Origin: Acidobacteriota bacterium
Lineage (GTDB): Bacteria > Acidobacteriota > Terriglobia > Terriglobales > Acidobacteriaceae
DNA: 64,000 bases
NCBI GenBank assembly: GCA_046566985.1
Contig: JBKICT010000006.1
Location: forward strand, 238,353-302,352
Reading direction: 5' to 3'
The notes beneath the pieces are model-generated. The model made no database searches and had not been told where the DNA came from. It saw nothing but the letters and a program-made list of their open reading frames with translations. Of this stretch, positions 5,084 to 54,664 are shown piece after piece. Both the position numbers and the translations under genes were made by a program. Positions within the stretch are counted from its first letter, which is position 1; each line of letters begins with the position of its first letter.

Positions 5084-5262
5084 GAGTGCTGGTGCTCCCA
5101 ATGCCGGCCACTTTCTTCTGCGAGAAACGTGGCCGCCGCACGTCGCGGCGCGGTCGGGTTTTTGTTCATACCTATCGTAGCCCGTGCCGCTCGGGGTTGA
5201 CGAATACGACCGAACGCGCAGAGGTTGCTCGCCGCGCACCGCAGCGTGGGAGCGCTGGCCAT
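5080..5262 (-). CDS. Possible 60-aa upstream ORF overlapping the GH13 start
   Basis: AAGGAG 5 nt before the ATG at 5262; its TGA overlaps the GH13 ATG (ATGA). No recognisable domain. Confidence 0.3.
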   Translation of the reverse strand: MASAPTLRCAASNLCAFGRIRQPRAARATIGMNKNPTAPRRAAATFLAEESGRHWEHQHS

Positions 5263-5338
5263 CCCATCTCCTTCAGAGATCATTGGAGCCTCGCGACCCG
5301 CGCAGGGTTTTCTGTGCGGCTAATCTCGAGTGCCCAGG

Positions 5339-6448
5339 TCAGAGGGGCTTGCCGCGAAAGACGTAGTACAGCTCGACGAGCAGGATGACGATGACCATCA
5401 CCTCCAGAAAGAAGGCGCGGTTCTCGTTGAACTGGTCCACCATGTGGCGATAGAGGTCTTCGGCGGTGCGCAGCTTCTCCGCCACCAGGTTCTTGTAATC
5501 CGGCACCCCGACCTTGGCCGCGGCCAGGCGGTAGAGCCGCGCCGCGAACATGTCGCTGAGGAACTTGATGGCGTTGTCGGCGTGCTCGGTGAGCTCGGCA
5601 ATATCGAGCAGGACACGGTGCAGATCGCGTGCTCGCGGGGCCATGCGCCAGCGGGTAAACCGGCCGCGCCGTTCGCCCAGCAGGTCGTACACGTTATCGA
5701 GAACCCCGGTGAGCAGTTCGTCGTAGTGGCGGAATTCGAGGAGCTGGGAGTTGGCGTACTCCAGGAGCTGGATCGCGGTCTGTGCGCCGAGCGGGGTGTC
5801 GTAGACGAAAGCCGCGTTCCAGCCGATGACGGTGAGGTCGTTGGCGTAGTAGGAGACCTGCGAGTGGAGGACCTCGCCGCACTCGCCTTCGGAGAGGCTG
5901 GCGCGCTCGCCGCGGACGACCTGGGCGATCTTGACCCCGTGGTTCCGGGCGAGGTCAGCCGCGCTGGGAGCGCCGGCGATTTCCCTCACGTGAAAGATGA
6001 AGTAGTCTTCGCTAAGCCAGGCACTATAAGGCTTTATAAGCGCAGACTTTGACCGCTCCAGCATCCGTCGAACAATGGGCTCGACGCGCGAGGCGAAGTC
6101 GACGTCCCAGACCCAGCGGGCCGAAAGCTGCACCAGGCTGTCCCAGTCGCCCGCGAACGGAATCTGGTACAGAACGCTGACGACGCCGTAGTCGTAGTAC
6201 TTGATCTCGCCCTCGAGGCGCTCGCCGGATTCGAGGATGAGCGGGTCGATGGCTTCGACCACCGGCGGACGCTCGTAGCGGACGTAAGCCGGGGCGGCCT
6301 GCTTGGTGCTGGGTTGCTTTACCGTTCGGGCAGCCGCCGCAGTCTGGATGCGGTCAAGGCGGATCTCCTCGCACACGTCGAACTGGATGAGCACCAGGAC
6401 GGAACCGCTGAGCGAGGGTGCAGCAACGGGCTGGGCGTCGGTTCCCAT
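5339..6448 (-). CDS. Conserved hypothetical protein with one C-terminal TM helix (RMD1/DUF155-like)
   Basis: Soluble N-terminal part, helical region, then LEVMVIVILLVELYY, resembling the LEWxIIxLIxxE tail of RMD1/DUF155 and CorA-like proteins. Confidence 0.55.
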   Translation of the reverse strand: MGTDAQPVAAPSLSGSVLVLIQFDVCEEIRLDRIQTAAAARTVKQPSTKQAAPAYVRYERPPVVEAIDPLILESGERLEGEIKYYDYGVVSVLYQIPFAGDWDSLVQLSARWVWDVDFASRVEPIVRRMLERSKSALIKPYSAWLSEDYFIFHVREIAGAPSAADLARNHGVKIAQVVRGERASLSEGECGEVLHSQVSYYANDLTVIGWNAAFVYDTPLGAQTAIQLLEYANSQLLEFRHYDELLTGVLDNVYDLLGERRGRFTRWRMAPRARDLHRVLLDIAELTEHADNAIKFLSDMFAARLYRLAAAKVGVPDYKNLVAEKLRTAEDLYRHMVDQFNENRAFFLEVMVIVILLVELYYVFRGKPL

Positions 6449-6487
6449 GCTGATGGCATGGTAGCCGATTGCGGCCGCGCCGCGGGC

Positions 6488-8347
6488 TCAGGGATGGGCT
6501 ATCTGAGAGGAAGCTTCGATGGGCTTGACCGCCGCCAGTGGGACCTCCAGGGTGCCCACCTTGCGCGAATTCTGGTCATAGATGCCGGTGCGGAGCCAGT
6601 AATTCCCTTTCGGCGTGGCGATCTCGTCGTGCAGTTGCAGTCCGGTGTTCTGGAACGCGGCGTAAACATCGGGCTTGAGAACGAGCGAGGCCACCCGCTC
6701 CTGATTGCTGATGATCTTGCCGTAATGGTCGTAGACCAGCAGCGTGAAGTTCACAACACCGCGATGGGTGCCGTCGGGCTCGAGTTTGAGATCGAGGTCC
6801 TTGAGGTCGACGGCAAAATCGATGCTGTAGCGCAGCTTGCCCGCGTCCGGGCCGGACGGGCTGGGCGGGAGCGGCGTGATCTTCGCCTCATAAAGAAGCT
6901 GGTTGCTCATGGGCATGCCAAGGTCCATGAACGGCAGCAGCGGATCCACGTTGCCGCCCTGTTGCTGCTTGTAGGCCTGCAGCCCCCGCTGGCGCGCCTG
7001 CAGAGCCGCCCCGGGAATTCCCTGGTCCAGAGCGTAATAGCCGCGGCGGTAGATGAGCTTGTAGTCTTTCCCGGGCAGATTGATGTCGATGGTGCGAAGC
7101 GCCCCATCCATGCGCTGATCGGTGGGCGTATACGACAGGGTGTAGAAGTCGGTGGTGGATTTGCCGATCTTGTCCATCACCTGTTCCAGGCCATTGGTAT
7201 TGAAGAAGGCCTGGCCTCCGGTCTGCTCGGCCAACATGGTCATGGCTGCCTGGTTGGCATTGCGATTCTCGTCTTCGGTGCTCAGCGAATTTGAAAACGC
7301 GCCGCCGGGCGTTCCTCCATACGCTGCCGAGCCGGGAGGGCCGACGAGCTGCGACGCATCGCTGGCGGTGGGCAGCACGGTCTGGGCTTCATAGAGCGCG
7401 TTGCCCGCCAATCCCTGCGCATCCACCGGATAGAGCGCTACGCGCGCGGCGGCCAGCATGTTCATCGTCCGCTGGAGCTCCGCTTCCATGCTGGGGTTCA
7501 CCTGCGGGCCTGCCTTGCCCGGCGCGATCATGAAGATGGCGGGAACGCTCTCCGAAAACCAGATGACGTTCTTGCGGCCGGGAAAGCTGTTGAGGAAGGT
7601 GGCCAGTCGCTGCAGATTTTCAAGGGTGAGAAAGAAGCGGTCGAAGCCCTGCGAAGTCTGATTCTCCGCAATGAAGTTGGCCAGCGCCGAGGCGGCTTCC
7701 GGCGATGCGGCGGTTCCCGGTCCGCCGCCGGGCACGGATCCGCTCATCATGCCGATGAGGTTGGTGTCGGCGTTGGATTCCGTCTGGCCGATCAGAAGCG
7801 GCGACTGTTCCACGCTATTGTTCTTCTTGTTCTTGAGCGCGGCCATCAGCGCGCTGGGATCGCTGGTGAACCCCTGAATGAAGTGGAAGCCCAGCCCCAT
7901 GGCGAAGATGGCAGTCTGCGTTCCAGGCTTCGTCTTCTTCAGGAACTTCACTGCCTGGTCATGGACCCAGCTTTGGCTGGCCATCCCCGTGTTGAGCGAG
8001 TCCAGCAGGACCACGTTGACAGCGGGCGGCAGCGGATACGGCGAGAAGTTGCTGAAGACGTCGGGAGGGAGCTTGGGAGCGGCCACCGGCGCGATGGGCC
8101 CGGCGTGATGCTCCTCAAAAAACGTGATGGTCTGCGGCTTGCCTTGCTCCGTAACCGTGAAATCGCTTTGCTTGAGCCCCTTCACCGGCTTCCCGTGGCG
8201 ATCCGTGACAATCACGTCTTCAACCACTGCACGGGTGGTGACCTTGATGGTCGGACCGCGATCCGCGGATTGAGGACTGGCAGTCTCTGCGCACAACGGA
8301 AGAATCGAAACGGCAAGCAGCAGTGAGCAGCGAACGACTTTTTTCAT
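6488..8347 (-). CDS. Secreted VWA domain protein, acidobacterial type (paralog 1)
   Basis: Signal peptide; IKVTTRAVVEDVIVTDRHGKPVKGL..DFTVTEQGKPQ N-terminus; VLLDSLNT; PGRKNVIWFS; LAEQTGGQAF; RRGYYA. Confidence 0.85.
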   Translation of the reverse strand: MKKVVRCSLLLAVSILPLCAETASPQSADRGPTIKVTTRAVVEDVIVTDRHGKPVKGLKQSDFTVTEQGKPQTITFFEEHHAGPIAPVAAPKLPPDVFSNFSPYPLPPAVNVVLLDSLNTGMASQSWVHDQAVKFLKKTKPGTQTAIFAMGLGFHFIQGFTSDPSALMAALKNKKNNSVEQSPLLIGQTESNADTNLIGMMSGSVPGGGPGTAASPEAASALANFIAENQTSQGFDRFFLTLENLQRLATFLNSFPGRKNVIWFSESVPAIFMIAPGKAGPQVNPSMEAELQRTMNMLAAARVALYPVDAQGLAGNALYEAQTVLPTASDASQLVGPPGSAAYGGTPGGAFSNSLSTEDENRNANQAAMTMLAEQTGGQAFFNTNGLEQVMDKIGKSTTDFYTLSYTPTDQRMDGALRTIDINLPGKDYKLIYRRGYYALDQGIPGAALQARQRGLQAYKQQQGGNVDPLLPFMDLGMPMSNQLLYEAKITPLPPSPSGPDAGKLRYSIDFAVDLKDLDLKLEPDGTHRGVVNFTLLVYDHYGKIISNQERVASLVLKPDVYAAFQNTGLQLHDEIATPKGNYWLRTGIYDQNSRKVGTLEVPLAAVKPIEASSQIAHP

Positions 8348-10462: not shown

Positions 10463-10478
10463 TGTGATAGCGCTCACA
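10463..10478. promoter_or_regulatory. Perfect CRP/FNR-family box TGTGA-N6-TCACA upstream of the hydrogenase operon
   Basis: TGTGA-TAGCGC-TCACA (10/10). A TACCGT -10-like hexamer at 10501-10506 puts the box centre near -42 (class II geometry). A weaker copy TGTGC-TTTAGA-TCGCG is at 10422-10437. Confidence 0.75.
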
Positions 10479-30172: not shown

Positions 30173-30814
30173 ATGGAGGAGCGTTTGGGGCTGCGCGCGG
30201 TGATCTTCGATTACGGAATGGTGTTGACGGGCAAGCCGGATGCGGATGCGCACGATGCGATGGTGCGGATTACGGGGCTTGCGCCGGAGCACTTTGAGCG
30301 GCTCTACTGGGCCGACCGGCACGCGTACGACGAAGGCAAGCTGACCGGCGTGACATTTTGGCAGAAGCTGGCGCGGGATGGGCTACTCGATCTGCCGCAG
30401 GACGCGCTGGACGATCTGAATGCGCTGGACGCGCGCATGTGGACGACGTGCGACGCGCGGATGGTGGAGTGGCAGGCAACGCTGAAGAAGCGCGGGATGC
30501 GGACGGCGATCCTGTCGAACATGGGGGACGCGGTGCTGGCAAACATCGAGCGGACGTTCGCGTGGATCCAGAATTTCGATGTGCTGGTGTGGAGTTATCA
30601 GTTAGGGATGGCCAAGCCTGATCCGGCGATCTACCGGCACACGCTGGAGCGTCTGCAGACCGCGCCAGAAGAGACGCTGTTCATCGACGACAAGCGCGAG
30701 AACATCGAGGTAGCGCTGGCGCTGGGGATGCGTGGAATCGTGTTCACGACGCCGGAGAACCTTTGCGCGCAGATTCGCGAAGCGGGGCTGGAGAAGGAGC
30801 TGCCGCTGCCTTGA
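30173..30814 (+). CDS. HAD family phosphatase
   Basis: VIFDYGMV, ILSN, KPDP.IY, FIDD. Confidence 0.9.
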   Translation: MEERLGLRAVIFDYGMVLTGKPDADAHDAMVRITGLAPEHFERLYWADRHAYDEGKLTGVTFWQKLARDGLLDLPQDALDDLNALDARMWTTCDARMVEWQATLKKRGMRTAILSNMGDAVLANIERTFAWIQNFDVLVWSYQLGMAKPDPAIYRHTLERLQTAPEETLFIDDKRENIEVALALGMRGIVFTTPENLCAQIREAGLEKELPLP

Positions 30815-30968
30815 GCAGTGCGGCGCGACTTCAGTAACAAATCTTCAGGTTGCATCCCGAGCCGGTGCAGTAGACTGGTGTGCCGCCAGAAATGCGCTCA
30901 CGGGTGCTCTCTGCGGCGAGGGGCCCGGGCTTTATTCAAGTCGATCAGAGTTTTCGGAGGCAGGACGA

Positions 30969-33662
30969 ATGTTTGCGAACACAGGAAAAGCGCAGTTTGC
31001 GATGGCGCTGTGCGGATTTGCACTGGCGGCCGCAGCGGCAGCGCAATCGGTTCCGGTTGTGACTGGCGACGCGCGTGTGGACAAGCTGCTGAGCGAGATG
31101 ACGCTCAATGAGAAGCTCACGCTGATTCATGGCACCCAGGAAGACCCGAAGGTCTACCAGGGACAGGCCGGATATCTGGCGGGGATTCCGCGGCTGGGGA
31201 TTCCGGGGCTGCGCTTTGCCGACGGGCCTCCGGGCGTGCTGACCCGAGTGCCGTCGCAGGGCGAGACGGCGACGATGGGTGTGGCGGCGACGTTCAGCGC
31301 GAAGGATGCGTACGACAACGGACTGGTGATCGGGCGGGAAGACCGCGCCGCGGGGATCGACGTTTCGCTTCAGCCGTTCGTGAATATCGATCGCGATCTG
31401 GAGTTCGGACGCGGGTACAACACGTTTGGTGAAGATCCTTACCTTACCTCGGTGATGGGCGTGGGAGAGATCAAGGGCATCCAGTCGCAGCACGTAATGG
31501 CGCAAGTGAAGCACTACGTGGGGTACGATTCGGACGGCACCAGTACATGGATCGACGACCAGACGCTGCACGAGGTGTACGTGGCGCCGTTCGATGCGGC
31601 GGTGAAGGCGGGCGTCTCGTCGATCATGTGCTCGTACAACCGGCTAAACGGCACGTTTGCCTGTGGCAACAAAGATACGCTGACGACGATTCTGCGCGAC
31701 CAGATTCATTTCAAGGGGTTCGTTACATCGGATTGGGGCGCAGTGCACGCGGTTAACTTTATCAACGCGGGACTCGACATGGAGATGCCGGGCGGCGCAC
31801 CGGGATTGGGCTCGTTCATTCCGTCGTTCTTCGATTCGAACCCGCCCGCGCCGCCGCCGAACCTGAAGGCGATGGGTGGGGTGATGGCGATGTTTGGCGG
31901 TCACATTCCGGAGGAGCCCCCGCCTGCGCCCGCAGGCCACAGCGATTGGGGCGTGAAGCTGAGCCCCGAGAAGATGCCGCAGGCTTTGAAGGATGGCACG
32001 GTGTCGGAAGCGACGGTTACGCGCGCGGCCGGACGGGTGCTCTATGAGATCGTCCACTTCGGCTACATGGACGGAATGCAGCAGCACAACGTGACGCCGC
32101 AACCGATTGAAGAGAACGCCAAGATTATTGAGAAGACCGGCGAGGACGCGGCCGTGCTGCTGAAGAACGAAGGCCACGCGCTGCCGCTGAAGGCGGACGA
32201 TCTCGATGGCGTAGTGCTGATCGGTCCCACAGCCGGACAGGTGGACTCGATCGGCATCAACGGCGAGCGGTCGGTGGGATTGCCGCAGCGGCAGGTGGGT
32301 CCGTACGCCGCGATGAAGAAGATCTCGGGCAACGACAAGATTCAGCTTGCGGTCGCGGACGATATGAACGGCGTTACCATCCCGGCCAGCGACCTGAGCG
32401 GCGGCGCAGAGTGCAAAACTGCGGATGCAAAGCCTGCCGCGGACGGCAAGACGAGCTGGCACACTCCGCAGCTCGACTTCACGTTGAAGGCCGGCGATCC
32501 GCTGCCTCCGAACTCGACACTCACCTGCACGGCCACCGTGAATGTTCCGCACGCGGGCGACTACTGGATCTATCTGCAGGCGATGGGCACCAATGCCAAC
32601 ATCAAAGTCGACGGCAAGCCGCTGGCGCGCACCGGAGCGTTCCAGGGCGGCGTGCACGGGGACATTCTGCAGGCCAACCAGGACAATGTGGTGCCGACGC
32701 CCGACGGCCTGGACAACGTGCGCCGGGCGATGAACCTGACGGCGGGGCCACACAAGGTGGAGATCAGCACAAGCCCTGATAGCTCGGGCTCGCCGGTGCA
32801 GGTGCGGCTGAACTGGTACACGCCGGAGAAGCGCCAGGCCGATCACGACGCGGCGATTGAAGCCGCCAAGAAGGCCAAGGTCGCGGTGGTGTTTGTGTGG
32901 ACCCGTCTCACGCCCGTGTTCGGGCTTCCGGGCGATCAGGACAAGCTGGTCGAGGAAGTTGCTGCAGCGAATCCGAACACGATCGTGGTGCTCAACACCA
33001 GCCAGCCGGTGGCGCTGCCGTGGGTGGACAAGGTGAAGGCGGTGCTGGAGATGTGGTGGCCCGGCGACGAAGGCGGGTGGGCGACGGCGAATCTTCTGCT
33101 GGGCAAAGTGAGCCCCGCGGGCCGGCTGCCGGTGACCTGGGGCAAGAAGCTGACCGATTACGCTGCTACGGATCCGGCACACCCGGAACGCAGCGCCAAG
33201 GGCGTAGACGGCAAGACCACCTACAGCGAAGGCGTGAACGTGGGCTATCGCTGGTTCGACAAAGAGAACATCGAGCCGTTATTCGCGTTCGGGCACGGGC
33301 TGAGCTACACGACGTTTGCCTACTCCGAAATGAAGGTGAACAAGGCTGCGGATGGAGGCCTCGATGTTTCGGTGAAGATCAAGAACACGGGCCCCATGGC
33401 GTCCGATGAAGTGCCGCAGGTATATCTGGGTGCGCCAAGTGAGATTCCTGCCGGCGTTCAGTTCCCTGTTCGGGCGCTGGCGGCATTCGATCGCATTCAC
33501 CTGAGTGCGGGCGCGTCGCAGGACGTGACGCTGCATGTGGCTCCGCGCCAGCTCCAGTACTGGTCGACGAGGGACCAGAAATGGGAGATGGCAAGCGGCA
33601 AGCGGACGGTGAGCGTAGGCGCATCTTCGCGCGATCTGCGGCTGCACCAGGAGATCGAATAG
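30969..33662 (+). CDS. Secreted GH3 beta-glucosidase with PA14-like insert and FnIII tail
   Basis: Signal peptide; ADGPPG, GRGYNTFGEDP, VKHY, MCSYN, FVTSDW (nucleophile Asp), YSEG..VGYRWF, FGHGLSYT. Confidence 0.92.
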   Translation: MFANTGKAQFAMALCGFALAAAAAAQSVPVVTGDARVDKLLSEMTLNEKLTLIHGTQEDPKVYQGQAGYLAGIPRLGIPGLRFADGPPGVLTRVPSQGETATMGVAATFSAKDAYDNGLVIGREDRAAGIDVSLQPFVNIDRDLEFGRGYNTFGEDPYLTSVMGVGEIKGIQSQHVMAQVKHYVGYDSDGTSTWIDDQTLHEVYVAPFDAAVKAGVSSIMCSYNRLNGTFACGNKDTLTTILRDQIHFKGFVTSDWGAVHAVNFINAGLDMEMPGGAPGLGSFIPSFFDSNPPAPPPNLKAMGGVMAMFGGHIPEEPPPAPAGHSDWGVKLSPEKMPQALKDGTVSEATVTRAAGRVLYEIVHFGYMDGMQQHNVTPQPIEENAKIIEKTGEDAAVLLKNEGHALPLKADDLDGVVLIGPTAGQVDSIGINGERSVGLPQRQVGPYAAMKKISGNDKIQLAVADDMNGVTIPASDLSGGAECKTADAKPAADGKTSWHTPQLDFTLKAGDPLPPNSTLTCTATVNVPHAGDYWIYLQAMGTNANIKVDGKPLARTGAFQGGVHGDILQANQDNVVPTPDGLDNVRRAMNLTAGPHKVEISTSPDSSGSPVQVRLNWYTPEKRQADHDAAIEAAKKAKVAVVFVWTRLTPVFGLPGDQDKLVEEVAAANPNTIVVLNTSQPVALPWVDKVKAVLEMWWPGDEGGWATANLLLGKVSPAGRLPVTWGKKLTDYAATDPAHPERSAKGVDGKTTYSEGVNVGYRWFDKENIEPLFAFGHGLSYTTFAYSEMKVNKAADGGLDVSVKIKNTGPMASDEVPQVYLGAPSEIPAGVQFPVRALAAFDRIHLSAGASQDVTLHVAPRQLQYWSTRDQKWEMASGKRTVSVGASSRDLRLHQEIE

Positions 33663-33692: not shown

Positions 33693-33727
33693 AGGCTTTT
33701 CTGAACTCTGCTCCGGATCTTCATACC

Positions 33728-34882
33728 CTAAGCGGCAGTTCCGACGCTGGGCACAGGCCCCAAATCAGACGCGGTCACCCTGTGCTTGTGCGCGGTCGTA
33801 AAGCCGCGCTCGAGCACTGATTGCAGTTGGACAAGGTCATGGTGCATAAGGTTGCGCGGATCGAGACCCAGCAGCGTGGCGAACCCATGGCCTAAAAGCC
33901 CGGCCGGCGGCGCATATTCCATTTGCACGTGCACCCGCGTATAACCATCCGCCTCTTCATCGAGACGGATGACGCCGTGATTCTCAACGATGGAACCGGG
34001 CAGGCTGCGCCACTCCACGCGCTGGTTTGGAACAAGCTTTGTAATCTTTCCGACCCAGCTGAGCGGAACGCCCGCAGGCCCGGAGAGGTGCCACCGATAG
34101 ACGTCCGCTCCTTCCGCGTGAATCTCTTTCACATGCGAAAACACCTTCGCGTAATTTTCAGGATTTGACCAGAAGGTGAAGAGGGTTTCGCGGCCGGCAT
34201 GTACATGCAACGTCTTCTCCACGTGAATGCCCGAGCGTGGAATTCGGCGCAGCGGCATGTTCAGCACGGAACGCGCCAGCATAAGTGAACCGGCAAGCGC
34301 GGCCTTCGAAGCCGCGGAGTGATGCCGGCGGAATCCGTCGACCATGAGCGCGAGACCGGCTCCCCCGACCGCGACGCGAGCGGTGGGCGACCACTTGTCG
34401 CCAAAGAATCCCGCGATCTCCGCAGGAGCCTTTCTGCGGCCCTGGGATTCAGGACCCTCCACGGTCTCGAGAAACACGGAAATGTCTCTGACGCCGCGCA
34501 CACATGCCACTGCGCGCCGGATACGCCCCACATCGCGCGCCAGGACTTTGCCCATCAACTCGACGTGGCCCTGCTTCACCTTTACCTCGATGGCGTCCGG
34601 GTTAGGAACCTTGCGGCCCAGAATGCTTCTGATCCGCTCGTGCAAGGTTCCATCGCTCACCTCGTCCCTGCGCAACAGGGTTTTGGCTTCCGCGATGGCG
34701 CCCTCAGCGCGGTGTTGAAGGTCGCGGCGGAATCGGTTGGCGAACTTGCGCGATTCCTTTCCGCAGTGATTGGCCTGATCGGTCAGGGCGACTCGTCGCC
34801 GCTTTCCGCGATCGGGATCGAGGTAGTACATCGACAGGGCGCCAACGCCCAACATCAAACTGCTCCACCCTAGCTTATTCAT
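33728..34882 (-). CDS. YtxH-like / BON / SRPBCC (cyclase-dehydrase) fusion protein
   Basis: N-terminal TM + YYLDPDRGKRRR; BON-like VSDGTLHERIRS.LG...IEVKV.QGHVELMG; SRPBCC VEKT..V...FWSN.EN....F, W.S..G...N.G.IR, HDL..L...LE.G. Confidence 0.8.
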   Translation of the reverse strand: MNKLGWSSLMLGVGALSMYYLDPDRGKRRRVALTDQANHCGKESRKFANRFRRDLQHRAEGAIAEAKTLLRRDEVSDGTLHERIRSILGRKVPNPDAIEVKVKQGHVELMGKVLARDVGRIRRAVACVRGVRDISVFLETVEGPESQGRRKAPAEIAGFFGDKWSPTARVAVGGAGLALMVDGFRRHHSAASKAALAGSLMLARSVLNMPLRRIPRSGIHVEKTLHVHAGRETLFTFWSNPENYAKVFSHVKEIHAEGADVYRWHLSGPAGVPLSWVGKITKLVPNQRVEWRSLPGSIVENHGVIRLDEEADGYTRVHVQMEYAPPAGLLGHGFATLLGLDPRNLMHHDLVQLQSVLERGFTTAHKHRVTASDLGPVPSVGTAA

Positions 34883-35101
34883 AAAAACCTCCGTCTTGCG
34901 GTTCGCTCTATCGAGGCGATGCTACGACGCCTCCGGTGCATCTTTGACGAAGCCCGTGGCAATGCGCTGCCGAGCGACTCGCTGCTCAAGCAGCTGCCGG
35001 TATTGTGCAGCCTGGATCGTGGAGGCGAACCCGTGCGGGGACCGCTGCACAGCGACACCGCAAGCCCCGGATGCCGCGTCCCTAACGTACTCCAAAGAGC
35101 A

Positions 35102-35117
35102 TGTGACGGCACTCACG
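35102..35117. promoter_or_regulatory. CRP/FNR-family box between divergent BON-SRPBCC and baeRF1 genes
   Basis: TGTGA-CGGCAC-TCACG (9/10). An FNR-spaced palindrome CTGAT-TCAG-ATCAG is at 35164-35177. Confidence 0.6.
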
Positions 35118-35336
35118 CAGCTCTGAGTGCTGTTGATTCCATGAAATGTGGAAGTGAAGAATTCTGATTCAGATCAGCTGGCCGGAGCGTCTTGTATGCA
35201 GAGGTAGTGAATGCCGCTTCTCGGTGCATTCTCCGTTTGTCCTCATCCCCTCAAAAAACGTGACTTGGAGTTATGCCGCATTCACGGCGTTCCTCTATTC
35301 CCTGCTCTGCCCTGATGAAAGCGAAGGAGGCAATGT

Positions 35337-36551
35337 ATGTCTCAGCTCTTTCCGTCCGCGTCGCTGGCCTCGATGCCAGAACCGGTACTCAGCGTTTACC
35401 TGGCCACCAATCCCCTTCGGCACCTGAACCGCAACTGCGATCACGGCTGTTCGCGCTGGTTCGATATCCACGCGAGGCAGCTACTGGCTGCGAGCGACAG
35501 CGCCGCACAGGACCCCCTTTTGCGCCAAATTAAACGCGTGCAGCACTTTCTAAAAGAGAGCATTCCGGAGGCGCCGGGCATCGCGCTCTTCGCGGGGTCG
35601 GATACCTGGCATGTGATTCCTTTGCCGAGCGAACCAGAGAACGAGATTGACTGGGGCAAGCCGAGGCTGTGGCAGTTGGTAACGATGGCTCAAAGCCACC
35701 GGCCGTGGTGCATTGCAAAGATGGACCGGTCGGGCGCGCGATTGTTCTCATTCCAGAATGGAGACCTGATACCGCTGGCCGCGTTGGAGTTCCATGTTGA
35801 CCCAAGCCACTGGAAGCAGATGCAGGCGTTCCACAGCGCCGAGAGGAATGCCGGCATGGCGCACGGTGCGCAACGCGATCTGTTCGAGCGGCGCTACGAC
35901 GCGCAACATGATCACTTCCTGTGCGATGTGGCGCAGCGGTTGAATCGTATATGCGCGAGCAGTGGTGTGAACCACGTTGTGCTGATCGGACCGAGCCGCT
36001 CCATCGGGATCCTCGAGCACAAGCTCACTCCGTTGCTGCGGAAACAGACGATCCAGATTCCGCATCTCCGGTCCGGAGGGGATTCCTCCCTATCGCTCAG
36101 CAGCGTTGTTGAGGATGCGCTGCGGCGCTTCGAAGCGGATCAGAAGGCGCAGAAGATCGGCGAACTGGGCGAGCGCGGCCGCGGCGTCGTGACCGGCGCG
36201 GAAGAGACGCTGGCGATGCTCCAGCGGGGACGGCTGAGCCTGCTGATGATCGAGGAAGACTTCAATCCGGTTCTTGGCTACTGCACCACCTGCGACCACG
36301 CGAGTGCGTCGCCTGTGCAGGAGTGCCCGCGGTGCCAGGAGCCCATGGTGGAACGCACGCTGCACGAAGTTCTGCCGCAGTTGCTGATGCGCCACCGCTG
36401 CGAGAGCGAGCTTGTGAGCGGGCAATCCGCGGAACGGCTTCACAAGATGGGCGGCATGGGAGGGTGGCTCCGCCAGAAGCACATTCTCAGAGCATCAAGG
36501 CCGTGGGCGTGGAGAGAGACGACCATACCGATGCCTGCAGCCGTTGCTTAG
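35337..36551 (+). CDS. Bacterial archaeo-eukaryotic release factor (baeRF1)-like protein with Zn ribbon, no GGQ
   Basis: AGGAGG SD. eRF1-like layout: VLSVYL N-domain with GIALFA; RNase H-like middle domain (IAKMDRSGARLF, VVLIGP); L7Ae-like C-domain (VTGAEETLAMLQRGRLSLLMI...GGMGGWLR) with a CTTC-x11-CPRC insert. Confidence 0.75.
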   Translation: MSQLFPSASLASMPEPVLSVYLATNPLRHLNRNCDHGCSRWFDIHARQLLAASDSAAQDPLLRQIKRVQHFLKESIPEAPGIALFAGSDTWHVIPLPSEPENEIDWGKPRLWQLVTMAQSHRPWCIAKMDRSGARLFSFQNGDLIPLAALEFHVDPSHWKQMQAFHSAERNAGMAHGAQRDLFERRYDAQHDHFLCDVAQRLNRICASSGVNHVVLIGPSRSIGILEHKLTPLLRKQTIQIPHLRSGGDSSLSLSSVVEDALRRFEADQKAQKIGELGERGRGVVTGAEETLAMLQRGRLSLLMIEEDFNPVLGYCTTCDHASASPVQECPRCQEPMVERTLHEVLPQLLMRHRCESELVSGQSAERLHKMGGMGGWLRQKHILRASRPWAWRETTIPMPAAVA

Positions 36552-36563
36552 CGCTGCGGCAAG

Positions 36564-37784
36564 CTATCGCACGCGGAAGGCCTTGATCGCAATCGCATTC
36601 GGTTCGCGGCCGGCGGGCAGCATGGTGAACAGCGAGTGGGTGGACGTGCGCACGGCTGCGACGTCGCCGGATCGCGAGTCCACGACAAAGAGCAAGTGGC
36701 CTTCCACCGCGAATGCCATGTCGCAGGGGCCGTCGCCGCCGTAGATGGAGCCGGTGCGCTTGCCGTCGTCGATGGAGTAGATGGTGACCTCCTGCGAGTG
36801 GAGGTTGGCAACGTACAGGAGCGAGTTATCGCTCGAGACGATTCCGTGCACCGGATAGTTGCCCATCAGGTAGGCTCCGCCCACGTCGTTGAAGGTGGTC
36901 ACAACTTCGCTGATGGTGTTCGAAAGCGAGTTCATGACGAAGAGTTCGCCGCCGTCCGGCTTCAGCGCGAGTTGCACAGGACCGCGGCCCACGTCCATCA
37001 GCGACTCGACGCGATCCGGGCCGCCGGGATTGAACTTTGAATCGGCCAGGGTAATGGCCATCACCTGGTGGCCCGCGGAACAGGCGACGAAGGCCTTGGA
37101 TGAATCAGGAAGAATCACGGCGTCCGCAGCCCCTGGGCAGCCGCTGAAGAACGCCCGCACGCGCCGGTTTTTTGCGTCGATCAGGCTGACGGAGTTGCTG
37201 CGCCGGTTCGGCACGACGATCGTCTTCGCGTCGGGCGCGACGCGCGCTTCCACGGGTTCCTCGCCAACGCCAATCTGCGCAATTTCACGGCGCGTCTCGA
37301 GATCGATGACGGAGACGGTGTTGGAACCGGAGTTGGGCACGTAGGCTAGCTGGTGTTCCGCATCGAGGCCGATCGAGAGTGGCTGGCGATGCAGCGGGAT
37401 GGTAGCGGCAATCGCGTTCTTCTCGGCGTCGAGCACGGAAAGCGAGCCGTTGCCGTTCGCCGGGCCAGCGTTCACCACGTAGACCTGGTTGCGCGTGGGG
37501 TTCGCGGCTACGGCCACCGGGTGCTGGCCGACCTGAATCTCGCGGTCAAGACGCAAGTTGACTACGTCAAGGACGGTTACGGTGTTGCTGGCTCCGTTGG
37601 TTACGTACGCATACTCGCGGTAGTTGGCCGCGAATTTGGGGAAGTCATGGGGACGACAGGCGGTGAGGAGGAGCGGCAGGACAAAGGCAATGAATATCCC
37701 AGGTCTCAGCATCAAGACCTGGGACACCCACGACCGGGAACGCGACGGGGCGGATTCACTGTGCCTTTCTTGCTCGGGAGTCAT
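36564..37784 (-). CDS. YVTN/YncE-type beta-propeller lipoprotein
   Basis: Lipobox LLLTAC; repeated [12 protein letters not shown] units; ATGA overlap with the aroF stop. Confidence 0.85.
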
Positions 37785-38839
37785 TGGCTGCCGGCAACGG
37801 ACTCCACGTGAATGCCGCGGGGCAGGATGCGGTGCACAACGGGAGCGATGCGCTCGATCTCGTCCATCATGGTGACAAACTGCTCCGGGTAGATGGACTG
37901 GGGACCGTCGGAGAGCGCCTTGTCCGGCTGGTGATGCACTTCAACCAGCACGCCGTCCGCGCCGACGGCGACGGCGGCACGGGCCATGGGCAGCACCTTG
38001 TTGCGTTTGCCGGTGCCGTGGCTGGGGTCGACGAGGATGGGCAAATGGCTCAGGCGCTGCACGGCGGGCACGATGGAGAGGTCGAGTGTGTTGCGGGTGT
38101 GATCGGCGAAGGTGCGCACGCCGCGCTCGCAGAGGATGACCTCGTAGTTGCCCTCGCTCATGATGTATTCGGCGGCCATCAGGAATTCATCGAGGGTGGC
38201 GCTCATGCCGCGCTTGAGCAGCACCGGCTTGCGCAGGCGGCCGGCGTGCTTCAACAGGGAAAAATTCTGCATGTTGCGCGCGCCGATCTGGATGACGTCG
38301 GCCCATTCGGCGACCAGTTCGAGGGTTTCGTTATCGATGGCTTCCGTGATGATGCGCAGTCCAAAGCGATCCCGGATTTCGGCCATGATTTTGAGTGCGT
38401 CCAGGCCAAGCCCCTGAAATGCATAGGGCGAAGTGCGGGGCTTGTAGGCGCCCCCGCGGAAAAACTGGGCGCCGGCCGCAGCAACTTGTTCGGCGATGGC
38501 GAAGGCCTGTTCGCGGCTCTCGATGGAACAGGGGCCGGCGACAATTGCCAGGTCGCCGCCGCCGATGGTGGCATCCGTGCCGGGGAAGCGAATGACGGTG
38601 TTCTCTTCCTTCACGTCCCGGCTGGCAAGTTTGTAGGGCTTGGTAACGCGGATGACATCGGCAACGCCGGGAAGTTCTTCGAGATTCCCGCGCTCGACCT
38701 CACCGCTGTTGCCGGTGATGCCGATGGCGGTGCGCTGGGCCCCGGGGAGAGGATGAGCGCGGAAGCCCAACTGTTCGATATAGTCGCAGACGGCCTGGAC
38801 TTGGTCCGGCGTGGCCTGCGCCTTCATGACAACTAACAT
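37781..38839 (-). CDS. aroF: 3-deoxy-7-phosphoheptulonate (DAHP) synthase, class I-beta with N-terminal regulatory domain
   Basis: [54 protein letters not shown]. Confidence 0.96.
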
Positions 38840-48678: not shown

Positions 48679-48694
48679 TGTGCACTCCGTCACA
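48679..48694. promoter_or_regulatory. CRP/FNR-family box between divergent kinase gene and gap
   Basis: TGTGC-ACTCCG-TCACA (9/10). Confidence 0.55.
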
Positions 48695-54648: not shown

Positions 54649-54664
54649 GGTGACGGTCGTCACA
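54649..54664. promoter_or_regulatory. CRP/FNR-family box between the candidate sRNA and purC
   Basis: GGTGA-CGGTCG-TCACA (9/10). Confidence 0.55.

Follow-up and report, generated by a model that had tools for sequence, protein, structure and literature searches.

Results

The present study concerns a 64,000-nucleotide stretch of an Acidobacteriota genome (family Acidobacteriaceae; GenBank assembly GCA_046566985.1, contig JBKICT010000006.1, positions 238,353 to 302,352 of the forward strand), hereafter the window, and in particular a gene at 35337-36551 on its forward strand whose open reading frame, homologues, Pfam match and predicted structure identify a 404-residue, three-domain protein of the bacterial aeRF1 type (P0001). 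The nearest experimentally studied relative of this protein is Msmeg1130, a Balon homologue, and there is roughly an even chance that P0001 is likewise a non-catalytic factor of the ribosomal A site. The frame runs from an ATG through 404 codons without interruption, and a Shine-Dalgarno sequence, AAGGAGG (35324-35330, +), lies 6 nt 5′ of the start, as a preliminary description made from the sequence alone had noted. Eleven close homologues, 43–79% identical and one of them from an Acidobacteriota metagenome-assembled genome (MAG), start and end where P0001 does. Because the frame is intact, the Shine-Dalgarno sequence is present and the termini are common to all 11 homologues, the gene and its start are real. 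An exhaustive HMMER search with a limit of E ≤ 1e-3 gave 857 cluster representatives, including 43 with E ≤ 1e-30, and an alignment of 12 orthologues, with identities as low as 43%, has 48 invariant columns.

In Pfam, residues 109-264 match baeRF_family10 most strongly (PF18854; 56.6 bits, gathering cut-off 27.1, E 4.5e-15), with further baeRF families next in rank. From an alignment of 12 sequences (A1), AlphaFold2 gave a model (mean predicted local distance difference test score, pLDDT, 72.9) that matches Balon homologues, aRF1/eRF1 and Pelota across all three domains, and on this model the three-domain, eRF1-like layout first read from the sequence is confirmed. The N-terminal domain comprises approximately residues 1-110 (35337-35666, +) by alignment and model, and the middle, RNase-H-like domain (35661-36128, +) is delimited by the baeRF_family10 match and by the solved eRF1 M domain 2hst, which aligns to model residues 118-265. 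The C-terminal, eRF1_3/Pelota-like domain comprises approximately residues 266-380 (36132-36476, +) by the model and by profile and structural alignment, leaving a tail of residues 381-404 that the model predicts to be disordered. With Foldseek the top match was 8v9l_z (Msmeg1130; E 8e-19, template modelling scores 0.70/0.75), followed by aRF1, the Balon of P. urativorans, Rv2629, eRF1 and Pelota. VIA-align gave Z 27.6 against Msmeg1130, with a root-mean-square deviation of 3.8 over 346 residues; Z was lower with Rv2629 (19.5), Balon (19.1), eRF1 (15.7) and aRF1 (14.8). A 36-member family profile aligned with Msmeg1130 over its full length (E 3.4e-24, residues 5-379 against 10-375) and with aRF1 4af1 at E 5.5e-11. 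Of the checks that the preliminary description had proposed, the comparison with the Pfam baeRF families and the structural alignment with aeRF1 and Balon came out in favor of an eRF1-like protein, the latter with Msmeg1130 as the closest match.

Other assignments fared less well. The aRF1/eRF1 model TIGR03676 scored 14.8 bits against a cut-off of 234.7 and acVLRF1 (PF18859) 17.4 bits against 27.1, with the baeRF families far higher. A VLRF1/Vms1-like factor, the name that NCBI gives the orthologue P0007, was rejected on that PF18859 score and on a loop that reads G-u-Q rather than GGxSQ. RING-finger matches in the PDB, found by single-sequence phmmer, were due to chance only, and the family profile was needed instead. 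No member of the MSMEG_1130 family (NF052288) scored above its cut-off in 301 Acidobacteriota genomes, and a profile search of a set of 5.8 billion proteins gave no hibernation factor so named by its source.

The loop of the middle domain is where catalysis would reside. At the site equivalent to GGQ, P0001 has NAGMAHGAQRDLFERR (residues 171-186; 35847-35894, +), the loop and the start of the following helix with the motif G177-x-Q179-R-D-x-F-x-x-R186, just as the preliminary description had read it; a literal GGQ is absent and G177-A-Q179 is present instead. Upstream of this is a family-specific segment, residues 152-165 (35790-35831, +), with an invariant W159, which is absent from Msmeg1130; the subgroup has a signature of its own, D-x-S-x-W-K ... 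G-x-Q-R-D-x-F-x-x-R, together with an intact zinc ribbon. G177, Q179 and D181-L-F-E-R-R186 are all invariant in the 12 orthologues. Among 118 full-length relatives G177 occurs in 108 and Q179 in only 44, and a FastTree phylogeny of the 70 that have both W159 and G177 calls for a minimum of 11 changes between Gln and another residue, with K, H, G, D, R, E or N as replacements. Even within the 39-member clade to which P0001 belongs, Gln is replaced by K (in P0021, 43% identical), H, H, G, D and R. The residue preceding it is A, P, S or T, not the second Gly of GGQ, and several relatives read GPQ. In the profile alignment to aRF1 4af1, anchored by a common Phe and Arg of the following helix, G177 pairs with the second Gly of GGQ, and the aRF1 Gln falls one residue before Q179, while Msmeg1130 reads A-G-Q at the aligned site. 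One relative (L032) has neither the Gln nor the zinc ribbon.

No NIKS motif occurs in the P0001 sequence. The N domain has a single helix hairpin, the tip of which (residues 53-54), which we tentatively equate with the NIKS loop of eRF1, is variable among homologues; conserved in this domain are TNPxxxxN (24-31), W41 and R67. The missing motif and the variable tip fit codon-independent binding. Inserted in the C domain is a zinc ribbon, C316-x2-C319-x10-C330-x2-C333 (36282-36335, +), assigned by alignment, all four Cys of which are invariant in the 12 closest sequences and which lines up in profile alignment with the ribbons of archaeal aRF1 (4af1, 3ir9); at the same site Msmeg1130 has no Cys. 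The four-Cys insert in domain 3 of the preliminary description is therefore real, with a spacing between the pairs of x10 and not x11, a miscount by one.

The gene shares its 5′ spacer with a divergent neighbor (33728-34882, -) encoding a 384-residue protein whose basic N-terminus is followed by a BON domain, a hydrophobic stretch and, at the C-terminus, a polyketide-cyclase-like SRPBCC domain; it has no NCBIfam name and is probably membrane-associated. Between the two, at 35102-35117 and 220 bp from both start codons, is the palindrome TGTGACGGCACTCACG, with one mismatch to TGTGA-N6-TCACA, which bears out the CRP-type box reported from the first inspection. The corresponding spacer of an Acidobacteriota MAG (L020) has a conserved copy of the block around the box, TTGATT (35133-35138) included. 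Boxes with at most one mismatch also occur approximately 330–360 bp upstream of the orthologues in two further loci (L021 and L058), and weaker, two-mismatch sites are found upstream in L020 and L059; none was found upstream in L057 or in the operonic loci of one genus (g3). Rfam gave no match on the 454-bp spacer, and a scan for sigma-70 promoters and terminators upstream of the gene yielded nothing useful.

In the window there are four boxes with at most one mismatch, where 1.05 would be expected (10463-10478, 35102-35117, 48679-48694 and 54649-54664). The window's genome as a whole (G000) has 136, of which 77 (57%) are intergenic compared with a non-coding fraction of 15% computed by the same rule (p 2e-28). 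Genes adjacent to boxes include cytochrome bd subunit I (C9:223937-225316), a tandem USP (C20:45421-46320), a NIR_SIR reductase with a NarI/DsrM-like gene (C6:122285-126934), CcmF and exopolysaccharide genes, and a perfect box lies upstream of a [NiFe]-hydrogenase. Cytochrome bd, USP, NIR_SIR reductase, NarI/DsrM-like proteins and CcmF are typical of low-oxygen or energy-stress responses. Judged from these sequence patterns, the boxes probably mark a CRP/FNR-type regulon of energy or oxygen limitation; box and regulon pattern support, and do not prove, stress-dependent expression of the baeRF gene.

Loci beyond the window were found with alignment A1, two in genomes and three in metagenomes. 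In the Acidobacteriota MAG locus L020, where the baeRF orthologue is 56% identical, the gene divergent to it likewise encodes the BON+SRPBCC protein (68% identical), and in the acidobacterial contig L057 the BON+SRPBCC gene lies 1.1 kb upstream of the orthologue on the same strand, so that with the window three loci link the two genes. In a clade of about 40% identity (L021, L058, L059) the divergent neighbor is a conserved fusion of phosphoribosyltransferase and dienelactone hydrolase, encoded in L021 at 5147-6655 (-), and the spacer between the two genes carries a CRP-type box; the window's genome has only separate partial homologues of the fusion protein, on contigs C7 and C14. A putative phosphoribosyltransferase, Rv0571c, has been listed with Rv2629 in the mycobacterial DosR dormancy regulon (PMC5309233), a likeness in enzyme name. 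In the genus g3 the baeRF gene follows RecJ and an aldehyde-dehydrogenase-like gene after a 26-bp gap and faces a convergent gene encoding a CBS pair and DUF2267 (in G038, L014:9575-10480, -).

A profile search of 36 congeneric genomes and a DNA search of 40 found no baeRF orthologue, and in the 36 congeners the BON+SRPBCC gene was not found either; in one genus of a sister family the orthologue is present in 5 of 13 genomes, or 3 of 11 without the unpublished G041 and G047. In congeners the GH3 gene (30732-33662) on one side and the propeller and DAHP-synthase genes (36564-38839) on the other are on different contigs or far apart, so that the BON/baeRF pair (33700-36560) sits exactly at a break in synteny. 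The convergent downstream gene (36564-37784, -) encodes a YVTN-type, seven-bladed beta-propeller with weak similarity to hydrazine synthase beta and YncE; since congeners, too, have it beside DAHP synthase, it does not belong to the acquired pair. With a guanine-plus-cytosine content of 0.57–0.62 against 0.62, the pair is not compositionally foreign, and composition thus gives no support for recent transfer. A conflict-system reading was dropped, since PADLOC found no defense match for the gene or its neighbors.

The window's genome has a second family-10 paralogue of 392 residues (G000:C14:27384-28562; L002:1309-2487, +), with its own CxxC...CxxC zinc ribbon and a loop without Gln (RMTGTSKSAHLERKKEE). 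Among NCBIfam models it scores highest against the Rv2629 family (54 bits, under the cut-off), and it is very divergent from P0001 (E 0.007 in a single-sequence search). The genes for pyruvate kinase and aconitase flank it, an arrangement that is not a hibernation operon and that recurs in the congener G023; a second congener, G028, also has the paralogue.

Discussion

The eRF1-like fold, the profile match to Msmeg1130, the lack of codon-reading motifs, a replaceable Gln and a stress-type context together favor a reading of P0001 as a Balon-type bacterial aeRF1 homologue (baeRF-1 family 10, Msmeg1130-like) that serves as a non-catalytic A-site factor under energy or oxygen limitation, and we consider it about evenly balanced whether this is so. 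On this reading a CRP/FNR-type regulator would turn on the divergent promoter region held in common with the BON+SRPBCC stress-protein gene, and the protein would enter the ribosomal A site without reading a codon, its N domain having no NIKS-type motif. The loop and helix of the middle domain (G-x-Q-R-D-x-F-x-x-R) would dock beside the peptidyl-transferase center and the C domain with its zinc ribbon would face the GTPase-factor site, and ribosomes might thereby be kept idle and protected. Binding to the A site and inhibition of translation are described for Msmeg1130 and Rv2629, and genes of the Balon type are stress-linked, often present in several copies per genome and positioned beside OsmY/BON-type genes (PMC10901736); the gene context in the window fits a stress role of this kind. 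Of the interpretation in the preliminary description, the fold, the family, the nearest relatives (Msmeg1130, Rv2629 and Balon) and the stress-type context hold, while its argument from the missing GGQ is weaker than stated.

Several observations weigh against a Balon-like role. P0001 falls far short of the NCBIfam cut-offs for the MSMEG_1130 family (NF052288; 34.2 bits against 480), the AOC03_06830 family (NF052287; 25.5 against 330) and the Rv2629 family (NF052289; 22.5 against 320). Balon has an HP motif in its N domain, a lasso loop and bL27 trap in its M domain and a beta-hairpin in its C domain that binds EF-Tu(GDP) (PMC10901736); P0001 has no HP dipeptide within residues 1-110 and has its zinc ribbon where Balons carry the Cys-free hairpin. 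No HPF/RaiA gene is adjacent, the only HPF-domain gene of the genome being on contig C8. Of the 59 candidate genes next to boxes, the 20 that were annotated were picked by hand rather than blindly. The most serious objection concerns the loop, as Q179 is one of only four invariant columns in an alignment of 36 sequences down to 21% identity (A2), picked among Gln-bearing relatives, and is retained in 33 of the 39 members of the clade. Burroughs & Aravind (2019) moreover flagged baeRF family 10 as possibly catalytic and described a Gln that is well conserved in the loop joining strand 3 to the next helix (PMC6514570). Although GGQ is indeed absent, the conserved G-x-Q and this flag mean that inactivity, which the preliminary description had concluded from the missing GGQ, does not follow directly.

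The main alternative is an active hydrolase. The G-x-Q loop of a release or rescue factor would here reach the peptidyl-transferase center and, on ribosomes that are stalled or arrested by stress, trigger hydrolysis of peptidyl-tRNA independently of the codon, the protein possibly then being parked there. The Gln does lie at the GGQ-equivalent junction of loop and helix, anchored by the conserved F and R, G177 is nearly universal among the 118 relatives, most members have a tiny residue before the Gln, in the manner of the VLRF1 pattern GxuQ, and the ancestral zinc ribbon of aRF1 is retained. The repeated gain or loss of the Gln on the tree is, however, unlike what is seen in true class-I release factors. 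In eRF1 and RF1/2 the Gly residues of GGQ weigh more for catalysis than the Gln does, and mutating them, for example to GAQ, reportedly cripples both (Frolova 1999 and Mora 2003, cited in PMC6514570); several members of the present family read GPQ. No RtcB, PrfH-like or other RNA-repair or rescue gene was found near the gene. The nearest tested relative, Msmeg1130, has A-G-Q and acts as a hibernation factor nonetheless. Because the Gln is repeatedly replaced, is not preceded by Gly and has a counterpart in Msmeg1130, it weighs less than its conservation would suggest and, as far as the alignments can tell, is not decisive for catalysis; we consider an active hydrolase somewhat unlikely. Slightly less probable still, and so a doubtful proposal, is a 'release-competent Balon' that would combine the two, being induced by stress, hydrolyzing peptidyl-tRNA codon-independently via the Gln of G-x-Q and then parking in the A site, and that would be made together with the membrane BON+SRPBCC protein under a CRP/FNR-type low-energy regulon. 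If true, it would represent an evolutionary intermediate between archaeal aRF1, with its zinc ribbon and Gln, and the non-catalytic Balons.

The fold also matches Pelota/Dom34, and it could be that P0001 has a non-catalytic function in splitting or recycling stalled ribosomes, or another ribosome-linked role with the BON+SRPBCC membrane protein, rather than in long-term hibernation. This would be consistent with the lack of a codon-reading motif and might account for the linkage with the BON+SRPBCC gene in three loci, which simple parking in the A site does not explain. Nevertheless, Pelota resembles P0001 far less closely in structure and profile than Balon homologues do (Z approximately 9–12 compared with 19–28), no gene for a partner ATPase or GTPase is linked, and bacteria are not known to have ABCE1, the splitting partner of Pelota, so that we regard such a role as quite improbable. 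Even less credible, and in our view very improbable, is that the gene is a recent acquisition and a dispensable paralogue, redundant with the genome's other baeRF gene and without a function of its own. Its absence from the congeners searched, its position at a synteny break and the second family-10 gene on contig C14 would be expected of a redundant copy, but the intact frame, the strong Shine-Dalgarno sequence, the 48 invariant columns and the conservation of regulatory box and neighbor in other lineages would not, and the C14 paralogue is very divergent.

Under the broad definition of Helena-Bueno et al. (2024), by which all three-domain bacterial aeRF1 homologues are included, P0001 already counts as a Balon homologue; its Pfam family was described in 2019, and it is an ordinary addition to a catalogued family. 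What is worth noting is the signature of its subgroup, consisting of the zinc ribbon, the W159 segment and G-x-Q-R-D-x-F-x-x-R, together with the conserved pattern of regulation and neighbors. Balon-type factors were recognized only in 2024, and of the three studied none has a zinc ribbon, while the present subgroup retains two ancestral features of aRF1, the ribbon and a conserved Gly-x-Gln, which makes it a handy test case for whether any bacterial aeRF1 homologue is still a peptidyl-tRNA hydrolase or all are plugs of the A site, a question that goes back to Burroughs & Aravind (2019). The putative regulon, with cytochrome bd, USP and hydrogenase, suggests how Acidobacteria of peat and soil may couple ribosome silencing to energy limitation.

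In comparison with known systems, P0001 is most like Msmeg1130 of Mycolicibacterium smegmatis (8V9J/8V9L; NF052288), with which it shares three domains, the same length, the lack of NIKS and GGQ, and a loop with Gly and Gln in the corresponding position (A-G-Q in Msmeg1130) that leads into a helix with basic residues. It differs in that identity is only 18%, in having the zinc-ribbon Cys and the 14-residue W159 segment, and in the position of the Gln, which in Msmeg1130 is one residue earlier relative to the helix than Q179. The Balon of Psychrobacter urativorans (8RD8/8RDV/8RDW; NF052287) and Rv2629 of M. tuberculosis (8V9K; NF052289) belong to the same superfamily and have the same overall shape (Z 19–19.5), but are 11–14% identical, and unlike them P0001 has a real zinc ribbon at the site of the hairpin and no adjacent RaiA/HPF gene. 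With baeRF-1 family 10 (PF18854) it shares a score above the gathering cut-off, three domains and a conserved Gln at the position of the catalytic loop, whereas the subgroup signature and the intact zinc ribbon set it apart from the family at large. Unlike aRF1/eRF1 (TIGR03676; 4AF1, 1DT9), P0001 has no GGQ and no NIKS/YxCxxxF, its N domain is shorter and the loop before G-x-Q is approximately 14 residues longer; it nevertheless has the three-domain fold of these release factors, a Gly-x-Gln at the loop-to-helix junction of GGQ, the conserved F and R in the helix and a zinc ribbon homologous to that of archaeal aRF1.

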